The notes beneath the pieces were generated by a model. The model was not told where the DNA came from and did not search any database. It saw nothing but the letters and a program-made list of their open reading frames with translations. A stretch of 64,000 nucleotides of DNA, from sequence record MT446421.1. One strand, 5' to 3'. A program made the position numbers and the translations under genes. Shown here one piece after another: positions 22,303 to 30,619 of this stretch (position 1 is the first letter of the stretch; each line of letters begins with the position of its first letter). The stretch comes from Escherichia virus TH55.

Positions 22303-22557
22303 TTATTTTTTAGGGATACGATAGTAACGCATCTCAACATCTTTCTGCTTGTGCCACTTTTTGATAAGGTCTTCAGAACCTTTAATAGTAACGATGTCAT
22401 AGCGACCATCATGCGATACTTCAGCACTTAACTGCATGAAGTTGTCTAGTGAACGGCGCAATTCCTCATTAGAAAAACTACCACGCGGGGAACCAACATA
22501 AGCAAACTCAACTTTTGCATCTGCGGCTTCGTTAATAAATTCTTGATAAGTTTTCAT
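22303..22557 (-). CDS. internal-protein-like protein with capsid targeting sequence
   Basis: starts MKTYQEFINE; 84 aa. Confidence 0.55.
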   Translation of the reverse strand: MKTYQEFINEAADAKVEFAYVGSPRGSFSNEELRRSLDNFMQLSAEVSHDGRYDIVTIKGSEDLIKKWHKQKDVEMRYYRIPKK

Positions 22558-22612
22558 GTTGTCTCCAGTAGTTGATGAGATAATTATACTGCAGTTATCC
22601 CATCGCGTATAC
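22558..22612 (-). promoter_or_regulatory. early promoter/hairpin cassette (family 1)
   Basis: coding strand ...cagTATAATtatctcatcaactactggagacaac ATG. Confidence 0.45.
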
Positions 22613-22613
22613 T

Positions 22614-22856
22614 TTATTTTAAGTCTTCCAGACGTTTTTTCATCTTGGTGCCATTCTTAGCAATCTCGCCGGCATCAGAACAAAGAGCAAGGAGAGCTTT
22701 AACTTTACCCTGGTCGCCTTTAAAAGATGATGCATCTACTGAATCAGCAAGTTCTTTGATACGTGCAAACAGGCGCTCTGCTTCAGCAAGGGCTTGACCA
22801 AGTTTAACTTCCATACCATGGGAAGATTCTGTTATAAATGTTTGATAAGTTTTCAT
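22614..22856 (-). CDS. internal-protein-like protein with capsid targeting sequence
   Basis: starts MKTYQTFITE; 80 aa. Confidence 0.55.
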   Translation of the reverse strand: MKTYQTFITESSHGMEVKLGQALAEAERLFARIKELADSVDASSFKGDQGKVKALLALCSDAGEIAKNGTKMKKRLEDLK

Positions 22857-22864
22857 TTGAAATC

Positions 22865-23137
22865 CTATTTTAGATAAATTGCATATTTTTTATAACCAGC
22901 CGTCTCATGGCGAAGACCCTTGTCATTGGCAAAACGCTCAATGTTATTAATTTGGTTCTGGTCAAGTTCTGAAATGTCAAACGCAAAAAAGTTGCGTTTG
23001 TTACCAATTGTTATATGGTCAGTTAAGTCAATGCTATACAGGTGATTGATATTGTCAATCATAGCTTTGACTGCTTTACTAATTTTTACTTCTTCATTCA
23101 GTTGTGACTCGTTGAAAAATTCATTGAAAGTTTTCAT
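22865..23137 (-). CDS. internal-protein-like protein with capsid targeting sequence
   Basis: starts MKTFNEFFNE; 90 aa. Confidence 0.5.
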   Translation of the reverse strand: MKTFNEFFNESQLNEEVKISKAVKAMIDNINHLYSIDLTDHITIGNKRNFFAFDISELDQNQINNIERFANDKGLRHETAGYKKYAIYLK

Positions 23138-23145
23138 AAGAAACC

Positions 23146-23478
23146 TTATTTATAAAGTTTTGCCAGTTCTTTACGTCCGCGTGCAGACATAATAAATTGT
23201 TCATCGCCAATTTTAAAATAAGCCATACCGCCGTCAACAGCGATACCAATTTCTTTAGTACCTTCTTTGCCTTTCCACTTGCCACCAGATTTCAGGACAG
23301 CTTCAACTGCAGCTTTGGAATATTTGGACGTTTGAAAACGTTCATTACCAATCTGAAAGAAAACACCATCTGCATTTTTGGTTAAACCAAATTTCAGAGA
23401 GCCTTCACTATCATCAATTGATTTGGTCTCATTGATGGCGGATTCGGCTAAAAACTCGTTGTAAGTTTTGATGTTCAT
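23146..23478 (-). CDS. internal-protein-like protein with capsid targeting sequence
   Basis: starts MNIKTYNEFLAE; 110 aa; position equivalent to T4 ipI. Confidence 0.5.
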   Translation of the reverse strand: MNIKTYNEFLAESAINETKSIDDSEGSLKFGLTKNADGVFFQIGNERFQTSKYSKAAVEAVLKSGGKWKGKEGTKEIGIAVDGGMAYFKIGDEQFIMSARGRKELAKLYK

Positions 23479-24233: not shown

Positions 24234-24234
<1 letters not shown>

Positions 24235-24911
24235 TATATTACCTTATTAATTTTATCAAAAAGTTCTTCGAGTGTGCCATTGTTTTTAATAACAATGTCA
24301 CTAGCTAGTGGTGGAAGTCCAGCTTCCGTAATGTGTGTATCGGTAGAATGATTTGCTTCATCGCGTTCTACAAAGATTATTGTAGCACCCATCGCCCGAA
24401 GCGAATCAAGTTCGTTCTTTTGACGAACATCTGGGACAACGTAATATTTATATCCAGAATAGAGGTTGTCAAGATAATCGCACGCAAAAGTTTTAATCCA
24501 AAACATGCTGTCGAACTCTGTACAAACGATGTCAGTTCCAAGGGTCTGCATGAAACGTCTAACTGTCCAGGGCTCAACATTATTTAGTGTGTGAAATTCA
24601 ATGATTTTACGAACCATATCTGGATTCGGAAGGTCAAGATTGTATTGTTGTTTCAACCATTCAAGAGCATCAACCAGAAGAATATAAGCTTCGGTGTTGT
24701 TCATTATCAAGGTTTTTTCACGGTCATAACCTTGTCCATCAAAATTTTCCAGGGTCAAATTGTGTGGCAGGTCTTGACGAATCCACGCTTTATAAAGCGC
24801 TTCTTTAATCGGACCTGCAAGCTGCCACTTTGTTCCGTTTTGACTAATAACATAATCAGCAGTCGTATCTTTACCACTGCGTTTTTTACCCACAATCGCA
24901 ATTAATTTCAT
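24234..24911 (-). CDS. 1: deoxynucleoside monophosphate kinase gp1
   Basis: P-loop GKKRSGKDTTAD, ...MGATIIFVER...DTHITEAGLP matches T4 gp1. Confidence 0.88.
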
Positions 24912-25507
24912 ACGTTTCTCATAGATGGATGCATTGACTTAGACCTGATTTCCTGTTGCATTGCTGCATTACTATCAATCTGTGGTCTACCTTCTATTAT
25001 TATACCATCAATTTCTACAGCAAAAGACTTAAAGTTAAAAGTTGCTGTTGCATTGATAGCCGGGTCAGAATCTTCTTTATATGAATACTGAATCTCTGAC
25101 AGGTCGGACGGCCATGCTCCATAGTAATGGATTGACATGACAATTTTGTCCTTGTTGTTATCTAAGATATGAAGCGTGACCGCTTCGGGACGACCCTTCG
25201 GATGCCATGCTTTTGATTCGTGTGTGATGTAGTTGTTGAGCGAGAGCATCCATTTATAAATGTCAAGCCATGCTCTTAGGTCTTTGTCACACAGAAAGTT
25301 AACAATCAGTGGGTCGAATTCTATTGTACTACCAGGAAGACTGGAGCGATTTATACCTTGTGTTCCCCCAGGAACATCTGTCACAGGGATGTGAACACCA
25401 GGGAGGGTAACGTCTTGAACGTTGAGTTTAAAGGTCTGTGTGAGGTTTGAATCGCTTACCTCTAATATAAAGTTAGTCGTGTTAGTTTGATTATATAAAC
25501 CTGACAT
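24908..25507 (-). CDS. 3: tail completion/sheath stabiliser protein gp3 (by position)
   Basis: 199-aa ORF between genes 1 and 2, ATGA coupling to gene 1. Confidence 0.6.
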   Translation of the reverse strand: MSGLYNQTNTTNFILEVSDSNLTQTFKLNVQDVTLPGVHIPVTDVPGGTQGINRSSLPGSTIEFDPLIVNFLCDKDLRAWLDIYKWMLSLNNYITHESKAWHPKGRPEAVTLHILDNNKDKIVMSIHYYGAWPSDLSEIQYSYKEDSDPAINATATFNFKSFAVEIDGIIIEGRPQIDSNAAMQQEIRSKSMHPSMRNV

Positions 25508-25592
25508 AATGCACCTTGTTTGCTTTAAAACAATCAGTGTTATAATGGTTCTAGACCTTTTGTCCTTACCAATAACACTGACCGATAATAGA

Positions 25593-26267
25593 TTATTTTA
25601 TTAATGTGTTAAGTCTTAGCTTAGTCATAAACGGATAACGTTCCAACATTGGCTTTACCCAGTATCGAGGATGCAATTCCTTTTTATATGCTAAGACCAA
25701 CTCTCGAGCTTGCTCGACGGTATCAACTCCGAAGTTTTTACACATTTCTTGCCTATCTTTTTCCCACCGGCGCTTTCTCAATTCATCCTGAATCTCTTTA
25801 TTTTTAAAATGACCATTATTGCGAGAATGTTTTGTACCCTTGGTTGGACTGTAATGTCTTCCTTTGACAAACCCATCCGGAATATTTTCCCATGGAAATA
25901 GTTTTATCGATTTGACACCATTATTAAAGTAAACTTTACCGGTTTGACTTTTAGAAATATTGTCAGCGTGTCTACGTCTTAACCAACCAAATAATTTATT
26001 ATTGCGTTTCAAATACTTGCTTGACTGGCACATGGATGTAGCAGCAAAACTTAAACCTGGATTTGTAGGATATATTTTAACCAATAGTTGATGGGCTACA
26101 TAATGTTCCTCAGGAGTCAAATCGACCAGATTATCTGGGTCATTTGAACCACCCATACATTTCGGAATGATGTGATGAGATTCTTTATATGAAATCAGGA
26201 CCCTGTTACGGGCCCTTTCAATTAACGATGAATATATAAACTGATAATTCAAAGTGAATTTCTCCAT
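25593..26267 (-). mobile_element. HNH homing endonuclease (Mob-like) inserted between genes 3 and 2
   Basis: 224 aa; HNH core HHIIPKCMGGSNDPDNLVDLTPEEHYVAH; not present at this locus in T4. Confidence 0.7.
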
Positions 26268-27076
26268 ACTTTCTGGGAAGAATATCTTTTGCCTTTTGAA
26301 AAAAACTGCTGAAGGGGGAGTAATACCACATTTGCCCAGTCGCTGGGCTTGATTTCAGTGATAGTACCTTTTATATTGCCGGGTATATATGCTTTAATCA
26401 TCTGGTCAGCCCCTTTAAATCCCTTCACCTTTGACCAATCAATCTTCAGATGAGTCTTGTTTGTAATCGTAGGAGTATTAGCATATTGCTTAAGAAGTTC
26501 CTCAAGGAACTCTTGACGTGCCTTCGGTGGAATATAGTGCAAGTTCAAACCGTACATCAAATTATGCTTACCTAGACCAAGATAAATGATTAACGGATAT
26601 TTGTCCCAGTATGGAAGAGTATCCTTATGCTTTGCATCATAGATATAAGCATAAAGTTTACCTGGTTGAGGTTTAGCCGTTACGTGGCCGCGAACTGATT
26701 TCTTAATTGTCTCTGCGAACCATCTGGCAGATTTGGTGTTGCTTGCAGCGCCTTCGTTAGCAATCTTATCTCTTATGCTCTTCCTAAAGCTATTCACCAT
26801 TATCAGCTGGCGTTCAGCCTTCGTAAGTTTACCAGCAGGTTTCTTTTTGAGCTTGGATACTTTATAAGCAGTCTGAATTCTTGAATGATACCTCGACATG
26901 CTTTTGGTAAAGGTCGAATAGTTGATTCCTTTCTCTTCAGCAAACTTCTTCGAGGTCATTCCTTTTTCTTTTGCTGTATAAAATTCAACCCCTATCTCAA
27001 CCCATTGTTGTTCTGATTTACTGGGTTTCGGACCTGGTTTATCTGCAGATTCATTGATAAATGTAAAAATACTCAT
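26249..27076 (-). CDS. 2: DNA end protector protein gp2 (by position and size)
   Basis: about 275 aa; ATGA overlap with gene 4 stop; synteny 4-2-3-1. Confidence 0.6.
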
Positions 27077-27522
27077 CCTTTCCATCCTAATTTTTTCAGG
27101 CCGTTTTCGGTTAGAATGCGAAATGTAATACCCATTTTATCTGCGGTAGCTTGTGCAGCTTTCCACTTATCCCTGTTCACAGAATAAGTGTACATTTCGT
27201 TTATATAACGTTTCTTACTGGCTGCTGTATTATTTACAGGAATTTTTGGGGGCTGTGTTTCTTTGAATGGTTTTATTTCAATAAAAAATTGCTGGCCGGT
27301 ATCAAATTTACACCATATATCCATATAGTAACGGCGCTTTTTGCCATCAGCATTGCTAAAATATGGAATAACAACAGTCTCAGAACCCCATTGAACAACA
27401 TTGGGGTGAGTGTCGAGCCACTTGAACATATATGCCTCCCAACTCGACCTGTACTGTATTTTCTTCCAATCACCTTTATATTTTTCTAGATTTGTTGGTT
27501 TAAACTTCCCGGAGTACGCCAT
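27073..27522 (-). CDS. 4: head completion protein gp4 (by position and size)
   Basis: 150 aa from MAYSGKFKP; position between gene 2 and the divergent gene 53 operon. Confidence 0.6.
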
Positions 27523-28207
27523 TTTTAAGTACCTTACAATTTTCACCATGCCAACGTTTATAGTTGCCTGGATTTGTTATTTTTCCACAGTGTTCACAGG
27601 TGTGACGGGGAGCATTTTTATTAAGCTCTGATAAACGTTTTCTGACATCATCAGTAATACCTTGCTTTATTTTCTCGCTATGATTTACCAAAACTCTTTC
27701 TTTATTTGCCTTGGATATTTTTGCTCGCCAATCATCTGTAAACACTCTTTCTGATAATTTCTTACAATGTTCTTCAGAGAACTTTTTACCCTTTGCTGCT
27801 TCTGACAACTTTTTGCAATGCTCTTCAGAGCGCGGGCCATATTTCTTACCTTTAAGAGCTTTTGAAATATTTTCACATGTTTGTTTTGAACGTTTACGTC
27901 CAGTGTGAAACTTAATGGAAGTCTCAACAGCGCGGATGCGCACCCATTCAAATTGTTTGTTATTGTAATTGTTGGAACCCATTAGAATTTTCGCAGCATG
28001 TGCTAACGAGTGATTATCTGGATAAATTTTAACCAATAACAGGTGGGCGACAAAATGTTCAGGAGCGGTAAGCTCGACTAAATTTTCATCAGTATCTAAT
28101 CCGCCCATACATCTTGGAATAATGTGATGTTTCTCTTTGTAACCATCAATGGGTGCTCGATTTTTAGCTCGTTGGATTAAGTTATTGTAATGTTTTAGAT
28201 AGTTCAT
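27500..28207 (-). mobile_element. HNH homing endonuclease (paralog of 25593..26267) between gene 4 and gene 53
   Basis: 235 aa; HNH core HHIIPRCMGGLDTDENLVELTAPEHFVAH; internal repeats GKKYGPRSEEHCKKLSE / GKKFSEEHCKKLSE. Confidence 0.7.
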
Positions 28208-28225
28208 TTATATTTTCCTCATATG

Positions 28226-28237
28226 TATTTATAAATA
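28226..28237. promoter_or_regulatory. palindromic divergent late promoter TATTTATAAATA
   Basis: TATAAATA readable on both strands; serves gene 53 rightwards and the HNH/gene 4 side leftwards. Confidence 0.55.
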
Positions 28238-28277
28238 GAGTATATCATACTTAAACCATATTGTAAATGGAGGCTTT

Positions 28278-28880
28278 ATGCTTTTTTCATTTTTTAACCC
28301 AATTGATTATGATGCTAAAACAATCAGAAAAAACTCGGCATCATTAACGAAAGAAGATGTCTTAAGCATCCCAATGACTGACATCTTCAGAAACTATCGT
28401 GCATATTTTGATAAGGTCGCGGTTAATTATACACCGAAAACATATTACATCGCCGGAGCTCCGAGACCTGAAGAACTTGCATATCAGCTCTATGGTAATA
28501 CTCAACTCTATTGGGTTCTCCTTATGCTTAATAATATCTATGACCCGTATTATGGTTGGATATGTTCACAAGAATCATCATATCAGGCATCAATTCAACG
28601 CTATTCGAATATAGGTGGTAATCAGGTTCTTTATCATGTAAATGAAGATGGTGAAAAATTCTGGAATCTTGTTTCTTATCCTGATAATCCATACACATGG
28701 TATGATAAAGGTGATAAGAACAAATTATACCCACAGTATGAAGGCCCATTAGCTGCAGTGGATATCTACGAAGATGCTATTCGCAAAAATGAATATAAAC
28801 GAGAAATAAAGATAATCGACCCTAATGATATCGAATCATTTATTTCGGCATTAATCCGCGAGATGGAGAAGGCGCTATGA
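28278..28880 (+). CDS. 53: baseplate wedge protein gp53
   Basis: 200 aa, first gene of baseplate operon before gp5. Confidence 0.75.
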   Translation: MLFSFFNPIDYDAKTIRKNSASLTKEDVLSIPMTDIFRNYRAYFDKVAVNYTPKTYYIAGAPRPEELAYQLYGNTQLYWVLLMLNNIYDPYYGWICSQESSYQASIQRYSNIGGNQVLYHVNEDGEKFWNLVSYPDNPYTWYDKGDKNKLYPQYEGPLAAVDIYEDAIRKNEYKREIKIIDPNDIESFISALIREMEKAL

Positions 28881-30619
28881 TTAATATGTCAGATAGTGTA
28901 AGTTGGTTCGTCGGTGTTGTCGAAGACCGAATGGACCCACTTCAACAAGGTCGTGTTCGTGTTCGTGTATGGGGTATGCATCCATATGAGAAATCGCAAG
29001 GGCCTGTAAAAGGTATCAGAACTGAAGACCTGCCCTGGATGTCTGTATTGATGCCAACATCATCTGCATCGGTTTCCGGTATTCAAACTGCCATGACTGG
29101 TATGGTCCCGGGTACTCAAGTATATGGTCACTTTTTGGACAAGTGGAAGCTCAATGGATTAGTCCTTGGTACATATGGCTCAGCATCAAGACAGAAGGCA
29201 AACACAACAGAAGGTTTTAGTGACCCCACAGGGCAATATCCGCTTTATGTGGGCAATGATGCTGCTGCGCTTAACCGAGGCGGTGAGGTCGGTTATGATG
29301 ACACTTCAAACGTAATACAAGATGCAAACACTGATGTAGGTATTAATCCAGACGGGTTAGATTTAAGCCAAGTTAAGCCTGATGATAATCCTAATTTCAC
29401 AATAGAAAACATGCTTCACCGCGATGAAGGTCTTCGTCTGAAAGTATATTGGGACACTGAAGGTTATCCTACTATAGGTATAGGACACTTAATTACACCA
29501 CAACCTATTAGAGATATGAATCAGATAAACAAAATATTATCCAATCAAATAGGCCGTGAAGTTAAAGGTAACCCTGGTGCAATATCAATGGACGAGGCTT
29601 CTAAGTTATTCCAAGAAGACCTTAAAAAAGTCCAAAATGATATAGGTAGACATAGTGTTGTAGGTCCGGTTTACAATAAAGAAAACCGTTCAAGACAAAT
29701 GGCTCTTGAAAACATGGCTTTCCAAATGGGATTAGGTGGACTTGCTAAATTTAAAACGATGCTCGCTGCAATGTTAGCCGGAGATTATAAGAAAGCATTT
29801 GATGCCGCTCGTGATTCTGTATGGTTTAACCAAACTAAAGGCCGTGCATCAAGGGTATCAATGATTATCCTCACAGGTAACATGGAATCATATGGTATTA
29901 TGGCCCCTAAAGAAAGGTCATTTAAAGGGCGTTCATACAGGATGATTCAAACCTTTGTGGCCCCTACAAATTCCGACCCGGCCGACCCGTGGACTCCAGA
30001 AGATACGAGGATTCTATTTAAAGAGCCAGAATCAAGTTACAAAGGTGAATATCCTTACGTGCAGACAATGCAAACTGAAGGCGGTCATATTCAGGAATTT
30101 GATAACACTCCAGGACAAGAACGTTATCGACTGATTCATCCGACCGGTTCCTATGAGGAAGTTGCACCAGATGGTCGTAAGACTTCGAAGACGGTAGCCG
30201 ATGGCTATTATATGACCCAGGGCGATTCAAGCACTTATGTTGGTGGGAATAATAAAGTCAACGTTGGTGGTGATGAAACCTATTACAATATGGCTAACGT
30301 TCGTCGTCAGACCGATGGAAACGAAACCATCCATATTCGTGGTAACGAAGAGAAAACTGTAGAAGGTAATGGAACACTCAGAGTTAAAGGCAACGTTACT
30401 GTTATTGTTGAAGGAAATGCTGATGTTACTGTTAAGGGTGATGCGACTACCTTAGTAGAAGGTAATGAAACTCGCACGACTAATGGTAATTTAAACTGGA
30501 CTGTAAATGGTACCGTATCTTGGACTTGTGCAGGTGCTTGGTCCGAGACTATGGCTTCAATGAGTTCTATTGCATCTGGTCAATATACTATTGATGGTTC
30601 GAGGATTGACATTGGCTAA
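28877..30619 (+). CDS. 5: baseplate hub/cell-puncturing protein gp5 with lysozyme domain
   Basis: 580 aa; FVGVVEDRMDPLQQGRVRVRVWG; lysozyme domain YWDTEGYPTIGIGHLI; C-terminal VxGNxT beta-helix repeats. Confidence 0.92.
   Translation: MINMSDSVSWFVGVVEDRMDPLQQGRVRVRVWGMHPYEKSQGPVKGIRTEDLPWMSVLMPTSSASVSGIQTAMTGMVPGTQVYGHFLDKWKLNGLVLGTYGSASRQKANTTEGFSDPTGQYPLYVGNDAAALNRGGEVGYDDTSNVIQDANTDVGINPDGLDLSQVKPDDNPNFTIENMLHRDEGLRLKVYWDTEGYPTIGIGHLITPQPIRDMNQINKILSNQIGREVKGNPGAISMDEASKLFQEDLKKVQNDIGRHSVVGPVYNKENRSRQMALENMAFQMGLGGLAKFKTMLAAMLAGDYKKAFDAARDSVWFNQTKGRASRVSMIILTGNMESYGIMAPKERSFKGRSYRMIQTFVAPTNSDPADPWTPEDTRILFKEPESSYKGEYPYVQTMQTEGGHIQEFDNTPGQERYRLIHPTGSYEEVAPDGRKTSKTVADGYYMTQGDSSTYVGGNNKVNVGGDETYYNMANVRRQTDGNETIHIRGNEEKTVEGNGTLRVKGNVTVIVEGNADVTVKGDATTLVEGNETRTTNGNLNWTVNGTVSWTCAGAWSETMASMSSIASGQYTIDGSRIDIG

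Follow-up and report, generated by a model that had tools for sequence, protein, structure and literature searches.

Two Mob-type HNH endonuclease genes among the late genes of the T4-like phage UPEC07, one a bare cassette and one linked to a divergent gene 4 allele

Gene organisation of the locus

The analysed stretch of 64,000 nucleotides (the window) corresponds with 100% identity to Escherichia phage UPEC07, a T4-like phage of the genus Gaprivervirus. Two minus-strand open reading frames at 25593..26267 and 27500..28207, here named HNH1 and HNH2, were found exactly as a sequence-only reading of this DNA had claimed, the first in the 3/2 interval and the second in the 4/53 interval (Table 1). 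Both positions had been described as gene-free in T4, and no ORF was indeed present in its 106-bp 3/2 or 47-bp 4/53 interval. HNH1 and HNH2 are free-standing ORFs between genes, with intact flanking genes and no intron or intein. A tblastn search of the window with Mob, Seg and I-TevII queries revealed no endonuclease genes beyond these two. They are uncharacterised members of the known T4 Mob family, and the label 'homing endonuclease' already stands in the UPEC07 GenBank record.

Table 1 Features of the UPEC07 locus in window coordinates
Feature	Position	Strand	Remarks
gp3	24908-25507		flanks HNH1
HNH1	25593..26252	-	Mob-type free-standing HNH gene, 3/2 interval; 219 aa from TTG at 26252
HNH1 catalytic core	26091..26177	-	H26, H27, N41, H50, H54, counted from the TTG start
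GC-rich hairpin	26197..26216	-	7-bp stem, 6-nt loop; begins 36 nt into the HNH1 ORF
TTGA	26249..26252	-	HNH1 TTG start overlaps new gp2 TGA stop; GGAG 8 nt upstream
gp2	26249-27076		flanks HNH1
Gene 2 3' polymorphic patch	26282..26330	-	16 differences in 49 nt against ECML-359; 14 inside 26297-26330
Gene 4 (head completion), foreign allele	27073..27522	-	linked to HNH2; diverged tract 27100-27522
HNH2	27500..28207	-	Mob-type HNH gene, 4/53 interval; 235 aa
HNH2 C-terminal CCHC zinc knuckle	27536..27598	-	C204, C207, H220, C224; ...RWHGENCK
HNH2 NUMOD3-type helical repeats	27608..27901	-	include GKK(Y/F)..EEHCKKLSE; presumed DNA-binding region
HNH2 catalytic core	28043..28129	-	H27, H28, N42, H51, H55; putative beta-beta-alpha unit
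Shine-Dalgarno GAGG of HNH2	28217..28220	-	9 nt before ATG
12-bp palindrome TATTTATAAATA	28226..28237	.	two overlapping T4-type late -10 boxes
Late -10 box TATAAATA	28233-28226	-	would drive HNH2-4-2-HNH1-3
Late -10 box TATAAATA	28230-28237	+	would drive genes 53 and 5
gp53	28278-28880		flanks HNH2

HNH1 and HNH2 belong to the T4 Mob family

The two proteins shared 45% identity over their N-terminal 137 aa (E 1e-31), and their genes a DNA repeat of 122 nt with 70% identity. The common HNH core motif proposed earlier was present in both ORFs (HHIIPKCMGGSNDPDNLVDLTPEEHYVAH in HNH1 and HHIIPRCMGGLDTDENLVELTAPEHFVAH in HNH2), except that HNH1 reads DNLV, not ENLV. The catalytic residues were retained, H27, H28, N42, H51 and H55 (HNH2 numbering) being invariant in a 64-sequence family alignment that takes in HNH1, and an AlphaFold2 model of HNH2 (pLDDT 92.6) contained an apparent beta-beta-alpha unit. 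Residue for residue, these positions correspond to the cores of McrA, pyocin AP41 and one group II intron maturase, with which the HNH1 core aligned, and the family profile matched McrA HNH (E 7.7e-4), followed by group II intron maturase, Cas8-HNH and IscB. An I-HmuI-type relationship was rejected, as I-HmuI was absent from both single-sequence and profile searches of PDB sequences; the core comes nearer to the kind of HNH seen in McrA, colicins and group II introns.

The phrog_655 homing endonuclease family was matched by HNH1 (E 1e-58 to 8e-58) and HNH2 (E 1e-61 to 6.6e-61). The Pfam HNH model (PF01844) scored 19.5 bits on HNH1, below its gathering score of 21.4, and gave no match on HNH2; this shortfall is a matter of the threshold of one model and not a defining biochemical feature. 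In precomputed tables, PF01844 was present in some homologues. A search of NCBIfam returned no useful match.

By BLASTP, T4 MobB showed 50% identity to HNH1 over 107 aa (E 2e-31) and 49% identity to HNH2 (E 4e-24), while the catalytic domain of MobC was 40% identical to HNH1 and 35% to HNH2; tblastn also matched the T4 mobA remnant. This comparison covered MobA, MobB and MobC. The likeness to MobB and MobC lies in the catalytic domain (N-terminal ~100 aa), with its start MNY..IY..LI...HHIIPRCMGG..D..NLV.LT.EEH..AH, whereas no relationship exists in the C-terminal halves. MobB and MobC also occupy other places in the genome, the former between a-gt and a-gt.2 and the latter between nrdG and nrdD. 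The annotations of VR7 and RB32 already read 'similar to MobB'.

Same-site orthologues were found in other T4-like genera with 57-69% identity over the full length. The HNH1 group comprises RB32 ORF146c (61% identity) and members in Karamvirus, Winklervirus and Dhakavirus, and the HNH2 group phiR1-RT g148, KpV477 gp159 and an orthologue in Aeromonas phage 25 (57-61%), with identical junctions in each group. HNH1 and HNH2 are therefore not recent duplicates of one another: their 46% identity is limited to the catalytic domain, MobB stands at 49-50% to each, and the same-site orthologues in other genera are closer.

HNH2 also carries the internal GKK(Y/F)...EEHCKKLSE repeats noticed by the sequence-only reading, two 31-nt copies at 27749-27779 and 27800-27830 with 84% identity, in a region to which TRF assigned a period of 27. 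The repeats are NUMOD3 elements (PF07460; 21.3 bits, cut-off 20.4) and form a run of helices in the AlphaFold2 model; HNH1 gave no NUMOD3 match against PF07460. Most homologues contain PF07460. The consensus of the zinc knuckle, CPHCxK...RWHxDNCK, is conserved across the family, and the same CCHC knuckle is borne by the GIY-YIG endonuclease that relatives encode in the 2/4 interval. Unlike MobB and MobC, HNH2 adds NUMOD3 repeats and a CCHC knuckle. This modular arrangement, in which NUMOD3 helices and a zinc finger come after the nuclease domain, resembles I-TevI and other NUMOD3-containing phage endonucleases, but I-TevI has a GIY-YIG catalytic domain and is intron-borne, whereas HNH2 is an HNH protein outside any intron. 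HNH1 and HNH2 are very probably T4 Mob-family free-standing homing endonuclease genes (HEGs), with an N-terminal HNH domain, different C-terminal DNA-binding modules and lineages tied to their sites.

HNH1 is a bare cassette at the gene 2 stop codon

HNH1 is a 659-bp promoterless ORF cassette inserted exactly at the stop codon of gene 2, where the old gp2 stop is replaced by HNH1's own stop. The longest ORF (25593..26267, 224 aa) opens with an ATG at 26267, but this previously assumed start was not upheld: the codon sits within native gene 2 sequence and is missing in VR7. The conserved start is an NTG overlapping the gp2 stop in 8 phages (six named genera and one unclassified phage), the same overlap or abutment being present in RB32, KaAlpha, Gravdalen, X20, QL01, Ursula and VR7. 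The true start is probably the TTG at 26252, in place of which the orthologues have ATG. Since this TTG overlaps the new gp2 stop, translational coupling is probable, and HNH1 would be read in this way from the late 4-2-3 transcript.

The hairpin near the start of HNH1 was terminator-like by scan and also appeared in the centroid fold. Over 8 orthologues, 98% of its cells were paired, with 2 compensatory pairs, a result matched by 5 of 500 shuffles. It may act as an attenuator by analogy with the internal hairpin of T4 mobE. MobE, encoded between nrdA and nrdB, is likewise a free-standing HNH homing endonuclease (Wilson & Edgell 2009, PMC2790892); its gene is promoterless and contains an internal hairpin terminator, and the enzyme nicks its target and drives co-conversion. 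HNH1 and HNH2 resemble it as members of the free-standing HNH family with an intronless life style, and HNH1, like the promoterless MobE, would be read from upstream transcription. The MobE hairpin lies 27 nt after the AUG and is a weak terminator, comparable in position with the conserved HNH1 hairpin, although the latter is without a clear poly(U) tract. The sites differ, with MobE at the nrd genes and HNH1 and HNH2 among late structural genes.

A polymorphic patch at the 3' end of gene 2 was common to the HNH1 carriers UPEC07, TH22 and VR25 and partly shared by P479 and fPSFA. It was also found in RZ, which lacks HNH1, while the patch of VR7 is that of the HNH1-less SP18 and CJ20. The patch is thus largely linked to HNH1, with imperfect segregation in RZ and VR7, and may represent a tract of co-conversion or a variant that resists cleavage.

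HNH2 is part of a module with a foreign gene 4 allele

HNH2, in contrast to the bare HNH1 cassette, is no simple insertion and came with a foreign gene 4 allele. It is part of a module of ~1.2 kb that also comprises this allele and a remodelled promoter region. HNH2 occupies the usual place of gene 4 behind a predicted late promoter and the ribosome-binding site, and gene 4 now follows downstream. The last 23 nt of HNH2 overlap the start of gene 4 (ATG at 27522) in a different frame; the overlap is conserved in phiR1-RT and KpV477, although it measures 11 nt in the orthologues.

Against every HNH2-less relative, gene 4 showed 15-36 mismatches per 100 nt, compared with 0-9 for neighbouring genes. 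Against ECML-359, its pS was 0.69 at 85% amino acid identity, while that of gene 2 was 0.115. The allele and the remodelled 4/53 interval were seen exclusively together with HNH2, with 83 diagnostic sites across 27100-28263. HNH2 in turn was never seen apart from this private allele, which is saturated at synonymous sites. Between UPEC07 and phage 212, the HNH2-gene 4 block was 98-100% identical, though gp53 differs by 5-17%. As judged from these alignments, flanking sequence is inherited together with the endonuclease gene, the hallmark of co-conversion. In a blastn search, the best match to gene 4 outside the three HNH2 carriers was the native genus allele (79%), and no donor of the allele was found. 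The contig with the closest HNH2 homologue (64% identity) was rejected as donor, as it belongs to a different T4-like phage with ~70% nucleotide identity. That contig carries the endonuclease gene at the same site.

The late leader of HNH2 was unstructured, with a minimum free energy of 0 kcal/mol, and an RNA structure masking the ribosome-binding site, as in the I-TevI model, was rejected on this basis. HNH2 is like I-TevI in having a late promoter, here a predicted one, directly upstream of its ORF, but its ribosome-binding site is not sequestered by RNA structure. The fold at the HNH2/gp4 junction was no better than that of shuffled sequence.

A putative palindromic late promoter lies between HNH2 and gene 53

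The perfect 12-bp palindrome reported at 28226-28237 is real and the sole copy in the window, with 0.03 expected and an occurrence in 3 of 100 shuffles. It contains a perfect late -10 box TATAAATA on both strands, the ATG of HNH2 following at a distance of 18 nt and that of gp53 at 40 nt. This box occurred 20 times in the window against 5 expected (4-fold enriched). All copies up to 28233 lie on the minus strand and all those from 28230 on the plus strand, in agreement with a divergent late-promoter region. In T4 and HEG-less relatives, the native 4/53 interval contains late -10 boxes as an inverted pair, and on sequence grounds the palindrome is a fused form of this pair. Among 26 loci scanned, it was present only in the HNH2 carriers UPEC07, TH22 and 212 and in the HEG-carrying KpV477 locus, whereas phiR1-RT retains the T4-type spaced pair.

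The palindrome would be used as a promoter in both directions, serving as the late -10 box of an HNH2-4-2-HNH1-3 operon on one strand and of genes 53 and 5 on the other. From 28226 down to 24452 the minus strand contained no further perfect box, and a search for embedded late promoters for genes 4, 2 and 3 within the endonuclease genes gave only one-mismatch candidates. Generic terminator and sigma-70 scans yielded counts no higher than in shuffles.

Distribution of the two genes in Gaprivervirus

Presence and absence were determined from sixteen aligned Gaprivervirus loci and the coverage pattern of 27 genomes. In this genus (~27 genomes), HNH1 was found in 6 and HNH2 in 3, and most genomes had precise empty sites. 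Both sites were empty in ECML-359 and ~15 other phages; phage 212 carried only HNH2, VR7 and VR25 only HNH1, and both genes occurred together only in the near-identical UPEC07 and TH22. The genes are thus absent from some close relatives instead of standing at identical sites in all of them, and comparison with the endonuclease-less relatives placed the insertion junctions exactly to the base. These precise empty sites, together with the intact catalytic residues, support the reading of both ORFs as homing endonucleases.

The same polymorphism could have arisen by repeated loss from an endonuclease-carrying ancestor, without gain by homing. The orthologues at the same two sites in many genera, which show that the association of endonuclease and site is old, and the RZ genome, where a carrier-type gp2 patch stands without HNH1, fit such a history. 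However, the junction at the empty sites is exactly alike in Gaprivervirus and T4, and there the native stop codon, ribosome-binding site and promoter pair are undisturbed, features that imprecise deletion would not restore. The gene 4 linked to HNH2 is also 21% diverged from the genus allele while its flanks differ by 0-5%, a contrast that indicates import and not loss. Repeated loss is accordingly very improbable.

Endonuclease content in the genus changes at three sites, which hold HNH, GIY-YIG or zinc-finger proteins. Three endonuclease-type genes border gene 4, namely an HNH gene (4/53), a GIY-YIG gene (2/4) and a gene for a treble-clef zinc protein (2/4). The allele classes of gene 4 track the adjacent endonuclease genes, with each of two sites having its own synonymous-saturated class.

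Discussion

By analogy with MobE and the Seg proteins, gain by homing would proceed as follows. In a mixed infection with a phage devoid of the gene, the late-made enzyme would nick or cut the unoccupied allele close to the point of insertion, towards the 3' end of gene 2 for HNH1 and in gene 4 or the 4/53 region for HNH2. Recombinational repair would then copy the endonuclease gene and flanking DNA from the carrier genome, which would itself be shielded from self-cleavage by the divergence of its flanks, namely the gp2 patch and the gp4 allele. T4 already offers established examples of free-standing Mob-type HNH genes, of their insertion without a promoter or with displacement of one, and of co-converted flanks.

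Alternatively, the genes may be retained but immobile, as stranded or domesticated Mob-type endonucleases kept in place only by overlaps with essential genes, at the gp2 stop and the gp4 start, and by an operon promoter and gp4 ribosome-binding site borne by HNH2. Among the five T4 Mob proteins, activity is listed for MobE alone, with the rest entered as 'not determined' (PMC2988022). The same source describes embedded and displaced promoters and argues that these, like gene overlaps, raise the cost of a clean deletion. The weak TTG start of HNH1 and the rarity of HNH2 (3 of ~27 genomes) are also compatible with immobility. Against it stand pN/pS values of 0.03 for HNH2 and 0.09-0.17 for HNH1, from which strong purifying selection is seen to act on both ORFs, and the invariance of all catalytic residues. 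Moreover, UPEC07 and phage 212 carry the HNH2-gene 4 module in backgrounds that differ, and HNH1 occurs in some backgrounds that have an endonuclease gene in the 2/4 interval and in others that do not. Immobility is therefore an unlikely explanation.

The locus also invites comparison with HEG-islands (Barth, Dunham & Seed 2023, PMC10448857), as its endonuclease genes bracket the essential genes 2 and 4. HEG-islands exceed 10 kb, whereas the UPEC07 block spans ~1.2-2.6 kb. An island is much better conserved between phages than the genome around it, as is true of the HNH2-gene 4 block in UPEC07 and 212; the whole 25.6-28.2 kb bracket, with both endonuclease genes, is a candidate island found only in the near-identical UPEC07 and TH22. 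For HEGs around essential genes, a role in moving those genes as cargo has been suggested (PMC10448857), and SegB is reported to help phages evade immunity through the amplification of anti-defence loci (PMC13096335). The nucleases could serve the phage by excluding markers of competing phages or by promoting the recombination or amplification of adjacent genes, homing then being incidental, and the gene 4 alleles that follow adjacent endonuclease genes would suit this idea. Yet most of the genus has neither gene, no defence or counter-defence cargo is indicated at the locus, and the mechanism overlaps with homing, from which sequence alone does not separate it. Such a service is very unlikely as the primary role, and homing is preferred.

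Gene 4, whose product has a TnsA-like nuclease fold, might be a target for which several endonuclease lineages compete. Each endonuclease gene would then form a co-adapted selfish module with its private gene 4 allele and sweep by displacing the resident one. We put this forward only tentatively; if it is true, HEG-driven diversification of a structural gene would be testable in crosses of sequenced natural isolates.

Both genes fit the established T4 pattern, and little here is new in kind. The value of the locus lies in junctions exact to the base, in a gene 4 allele that hitch-hikes with each bordering site, and in an ORF wired into its neighbour's stop. With isolates that hold every combination of occupied and empty sites, Gaprivervirus is an unusually clean natural experiment. 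It offers ready-made partner phages for activity tests in the Mob family, where MobE alone has been shown to work, and allows measuring how far HEGs drag essential structural genes between phages.

HNH1 and HNH2 are Mob-type free-standing endonucleases

Positions 24900-28900 of the window match Escherichia phage UPEC07 (MW250787.1; Straboviridae, Tevenvirinae, Gaprivervirus) at 100% identity and phage TH22 at 99.9%. UPEC07 (Uganda) and TH22 (USA; locus L014), the two phages carrying both endonuclease genes, share this 99.9% identity over 4 kb although they come from different continents. The sequence-only reading had placed two HNH homing endonuclease ORFs here at positions that are gene-free in T4. 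Indeed, T4 contains no ORF in its 106-bp 3/2 interval or its 47-bp 4/53 interval, and all the elements described (two ORFs, a repeat, a palindrome and late boxes) were found in the sequence. Both genes are already labeled "homing endonuclease" in the UPEC07 GenBank record.

Gene order and coordinates in the window
Feature	Position	Strand
Gene 1, dNMP kinase	24234-24911	minus
Gene 3	24908-25507	minus
HNH1	25593-26252 or 26267	minus
Gene 2, DNA end protector	26249-27076	minus
Gene 4, head completion	27073-27522	minus
HNH2	27500-28207	minus
Gene 53	28278-28880	plus
Gene 5	after gene 53	plus

Beyond gene 1, four tandem small minus-strand ORFs at 22303-23478 start with MKTYQEF, MKTYQTF, MKTFNEF and MNIKTYNEF. 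These N-termini resemble the capsid-targeting N-terminus of T4 internal proteins, and the ORFs look like a paralogous array of internal proteins.

HNH1 and HNH2 shared 45% identity across the first 137 residues (E 1e-31) and a common 122-nt DNA repeat at 70% identity. Both matched PHROG 655 "homing endonuclease" (E 8e-58 and 6.6e-61, respectively), and 414 homologs were retrieved from a large protein collection. In an alignment of 64 homologs with HNH1 and HNH2, the columns E25, H27, H28, P31, G36, N42, H51, H55 and L58 were invariant, the catalytic histidines H27, H28, H51 and H55 thus being retained; this H-H...N...H...H arrangement corresponds to the pattern of a colicin/McrA type HNH nuclease. 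Searches against PDB sequences, with single sequences as well as with a profile, aligned the HNH core with McrA (profile E 7.7e-4), as well as with pyocin AP41 DNase, a group II intron maturase, Cas8-HNH and IscB. The Pfam HNH model left HNH1 just under threshold and did not match HNH2. In an AlphaFold2 model of HNH2 (pLDDT 92.6), the invariant residues lay on a strand-strand-helix unit (25-28, 43-46, 48-61), and beyond it came a helix series, the NUMOD3 repeats, and at the C-terminus a small CCHC knuckle. Whole-model fold searches were not significant and returned local HNH matches only, so the fold supports the assignment without deciding it. The internal repeat noted in HNH2 is present in the DNA (27749-27779 and 27800-27830, 84% identical) and matched the NUMOD3 DNA-binding motif above the Pfam gathering score.

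The catalytic domains of both proteins were 49-50% identical to T4 MobB and 35-40% to T4 MobC; they are therefore Mob-type free-standing HNH endonucleases. The description of the two genes as paralogous holds at the family level only, because HNH1 and HNH2 are as far from each other as either is from MobB. They are uncharacterized but already annotated members of a known family, with no feature outside known categories; the original observation is confirmed and its interpretation supported, with refinements.

Distribution among relatives

The phage collection contained 27 distinct Gapriverviruses, classed by coverage pattern; 16 loci were fetched and aligned, and the states of the others were taken from coverage and match length. 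The genes varied among these genomes, 16 of which had no extra gene, so that the presence of both genes at identical sites in all relatives, which would have refuted the sequence-only reading, is excluded.

Extra genes in 27 Gapriverviruses
State	Genomes	n
HNH1 and HNH2	UPEC07, TH22	2
HNH2 only	phage 212	1
HNH1 only	VR7, VR25	2
HNH1 and a different gene between genes 2 and 4	P479, fPSFA	2
Gene between genes 2 and 4 only	vB_YenM_P8, RZ, DK-13, PSD2001	4
No extra gene	ECML-359, SP18, UPEC01 and others	16

Orthologs of HNH1 (60-69% identity) adjoined gene 2 in Tequatrovirus, Dhakavirus, Karamvirus, Winklervirus and Kosakonia and Citrobacter phages, and those of HNH2 (57-61%) occupied the 4/53 interval in Tegunavirus, Jiaodavirus and Aeromonas phages. 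Such a distribution points to old, site-faithful lineages, and the within-genus pN/pS of 0.03 for HNH2 and 0.09-0.17 for HNH1 indicates purifying selection and argues against decaying relics.

A third insertion site, empty at ~27083 in the window, lies between genes 2 and 4 in P479, vB_YenM_P8, RZ, PSD2001 and fPSFA. It holds a 215-aa GIY-YIG, NUMOD3 and CCHC-knuckle endonuclease in vB_YenM_P8, PSD2001 and P479, and in RZ and fPSFA an unrelated protein of 242 aa that matches a treble-clef zinc finger (DUF4379). Gene 4 in all five belongs to a third allele class (pS ~0.87 vs the native one).

Insertion of HNH1 behind gene 2

Compared with empty genomes, the HNH1 insert comprised 659 bp of extra DNA (25596-26254). 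The empty junction reads ...AAT TCA TAA TCTATTATC, with the insertion point after TCA, and the occupied one ...AAT TCA CTT TGA..(HNH1)..AAA TAA TCTATTATC. Therefore, gp2 is one residue longer and ends at a new TGA, and the HNH1 stop takes the place of the old gp2 stop. The same logic was seen in the Tequatrovirus pair T4 (empty) and RB32. The ATG at 26267, annotated as the HNH1 start in UPEC07, is part of the native gene 2 sequence and absent from VR7. The start common to RB32, KaAlpha (Karamvirus), Gravdalen and X20 (Winklervirus), QL01 (Dhakavirus), Ursula and VR7 is an NTG overlapping or abutting the gp2 stop, equivalent in UPEC07 to the TTG at 26252, which forms part of TTGA and has a GGAG 8 nt upstream. 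Given this junction and start anatomy, HNH1 is a bare ORF cassette without its own promoter, and its translation from the late transcript is most likely coupled to that of gene 2. The HNH1-linked tract was short, with 16 differences, nearly all at wobble positions, in a polymorphic patch at the 3' end of gene 2 (26282-26330), and its linkage to HNH1 was imperfect (exceptions RZ, VR7, SP18 and CJ20).

A GC-rich hairpin with a 7-bp stem (26216-26197, minus) and no clear U tract begins 36 nt into HNH1 and was kept in 8/8 orthologs from several genera. It showed two compensatory pairs and 98% of cells paired, a level matched by 5 of 500 shuffles in this small sample. It resembles the hairpin that acts as a weak terminator 27 nt into T4 mobE (PMC2790892) and may likewise attenuate transcription, although the downstream gene, gene 3, is essential.

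The 85-bp spacer between gene 3 and HNH1 (25508-25592), which separates genes 2 and 3 in empty genomes, was near-invariant in 16/16 Gapriverviruses. It includes a 9-bp inverted repeat (CAGTGTTAT...ATAACACTG) and is free of perfect late promoter boxes. On its plus strand, TTGCTTTA-N12-TATAAT (25520-25547) resembles a T4 middle promoter (MotA box and -10) and would read toward HNH1, gene 2 and gene 4 in antisense; the corresponding T4 position has ATGCTTTA-N13-TATAAT.

Insertion of HNH2 and the linked gene 4 allele

Empty genomes lacked 27522-28208 and 14 and 6 more intergenic bases. The final 23 nt of HNH2 are the first gene 4 codons in another frame (...AAT GGC GTA CTC CGG GAA GTT TAA over ATG GCG TAC TCC GGG AAG TTT), and the phiR1-RT and KpV477 orthologs, ending ...NGL*, share this overlap with the gp4 ATG. 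Beside HNH2, gene 4 has lost the AGGAGG ribosome-binding site and uses TAAGG inside the HNH2 ORF instead. HNH2 itself has a GAGG site and an unstructured leader behind a minus-strand late-promoter box, TATAAATA. HNH2-4-2-HNH1-3 is probably one late operon, because the minus strand has no further perfect late box as far as 24452.

Annotation of the gene 4 start is inconsistent wherever HNH2 or an ortholog is present: the UPEC07 protein is made too long (158 aa; window 27522-27549), and those of phage 212 (locus L003, 2015-2371), phiR1-RT (L012, 3283-3636) and KpV477 (L013, 3279-3635) too short, at 117-118 aa. The conserved start, MAYSGKF, overlaps the endonuclease 3' end. The gp4 protein matches Pfam Tn7_TnsA-like_N (E 1.7e-20), giving this essential virion-completion protein a nuclease fold, and is named "head completion nuclease" in some records.

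Outside the gene 2 patch, genes 1, 3 and 2 showed 0-9 mismatches per 100 nt vs UPEC07; gene 4 (27100-27522) showed 15-36 in every genome without HNH2 and 0-4 in phage 212, which carries it. Between UPEC07 and ECML-359, pS was 0.69 for gene 4 (85% aa identity) and 0.115 for gene 2; gene 4 from genomes with a gene at 2/4 reached 0.87-0.89 vs the native allele (78-79% aa identity). From 83 diagnostic sites, the HNH2 module spans ~27100-28263, and it is common to UPEC07 and phage 212 despite unlike gp53 (5-17 mismatches per 100 nt) and gp2 (pS 0.22). The pattern indicates that a foreign gene 4 arrived together with HNH2, as would be expected from gene conversion carrying flanking DNA along with an endonuclease gene. 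No donor of this allele was found in the phage collection, where the best foreign match was 79%. The contig of the closest HNH2 homolog, considered as donor, belongs to another, more distant T4-like phage.

A putative palindromic late promoter

The proposed bidirectional promoter, the palindrome TATTTATAAATA (28226-28237), is the sole copy in the window, where 0.03 would be expected by chance. The late box TATAAATA occurred 20 times vs 5 expected, a four-fold enrichment, and the strand of the boxes switches exactly at the palindrome. In T4, ECML-359 and phiR1-RT, the 4/53 interval contains the inverted pair TATAAATA-N7 to N10-TATTTAT(A/T), which reads as two crossed late -10 boxes, one each for gene 4 and gene 53. 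HNH2-carrying alleles have the box adjoining gene 53 destroyed (TACAATAT) and the two boxes fused as the 12-bp palindrome, which lies upstream of both genes, 18 nt from the HNH2 ATG and 40 nt from the gp53 ATG. Beside it, ATTTATAAATA(G)AGTATATCA corresponds, in opposite orientation, to the native promoter and leader of gene 4. A single palindrome that would serve both directions is a reasonable reading; the palindrome is a variant of the native promoter arrangement. Among 26 loci scanned, it occurred only in UPEC07, TH22, phage 212 and the endonuclease-carrying locus of KpV477, and it appears to travel with the endonuclease module.

Proposed mechanism and implications

By analogy with MobE and Seg endonucleases (PMC2790892; PMC2988022), the enzymes would be made late in infection and would nick or cut the gene-less allele of a co-infecting phage, and repair off the carrier genome would copy the endonuclease gene with its flanks. 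The overlaps with essential genes and the capture of the operon promoter by HNH2 would also hinder loss, an argument made earlier for T4 endonuclease genes containing embedded promoters (PMC2988022). The bracketing of essential genes by two endonuclease genes would be in keeping with the "HEG-islands" that Barth et al. describe (PMC10448857). The most useful products of this analysis are the base-exact junctions, the corrected HNH1 start and the linked gene 4 allele, and relatives with and without HNH1 and HNH2 provide natural partner phages for direct tests.
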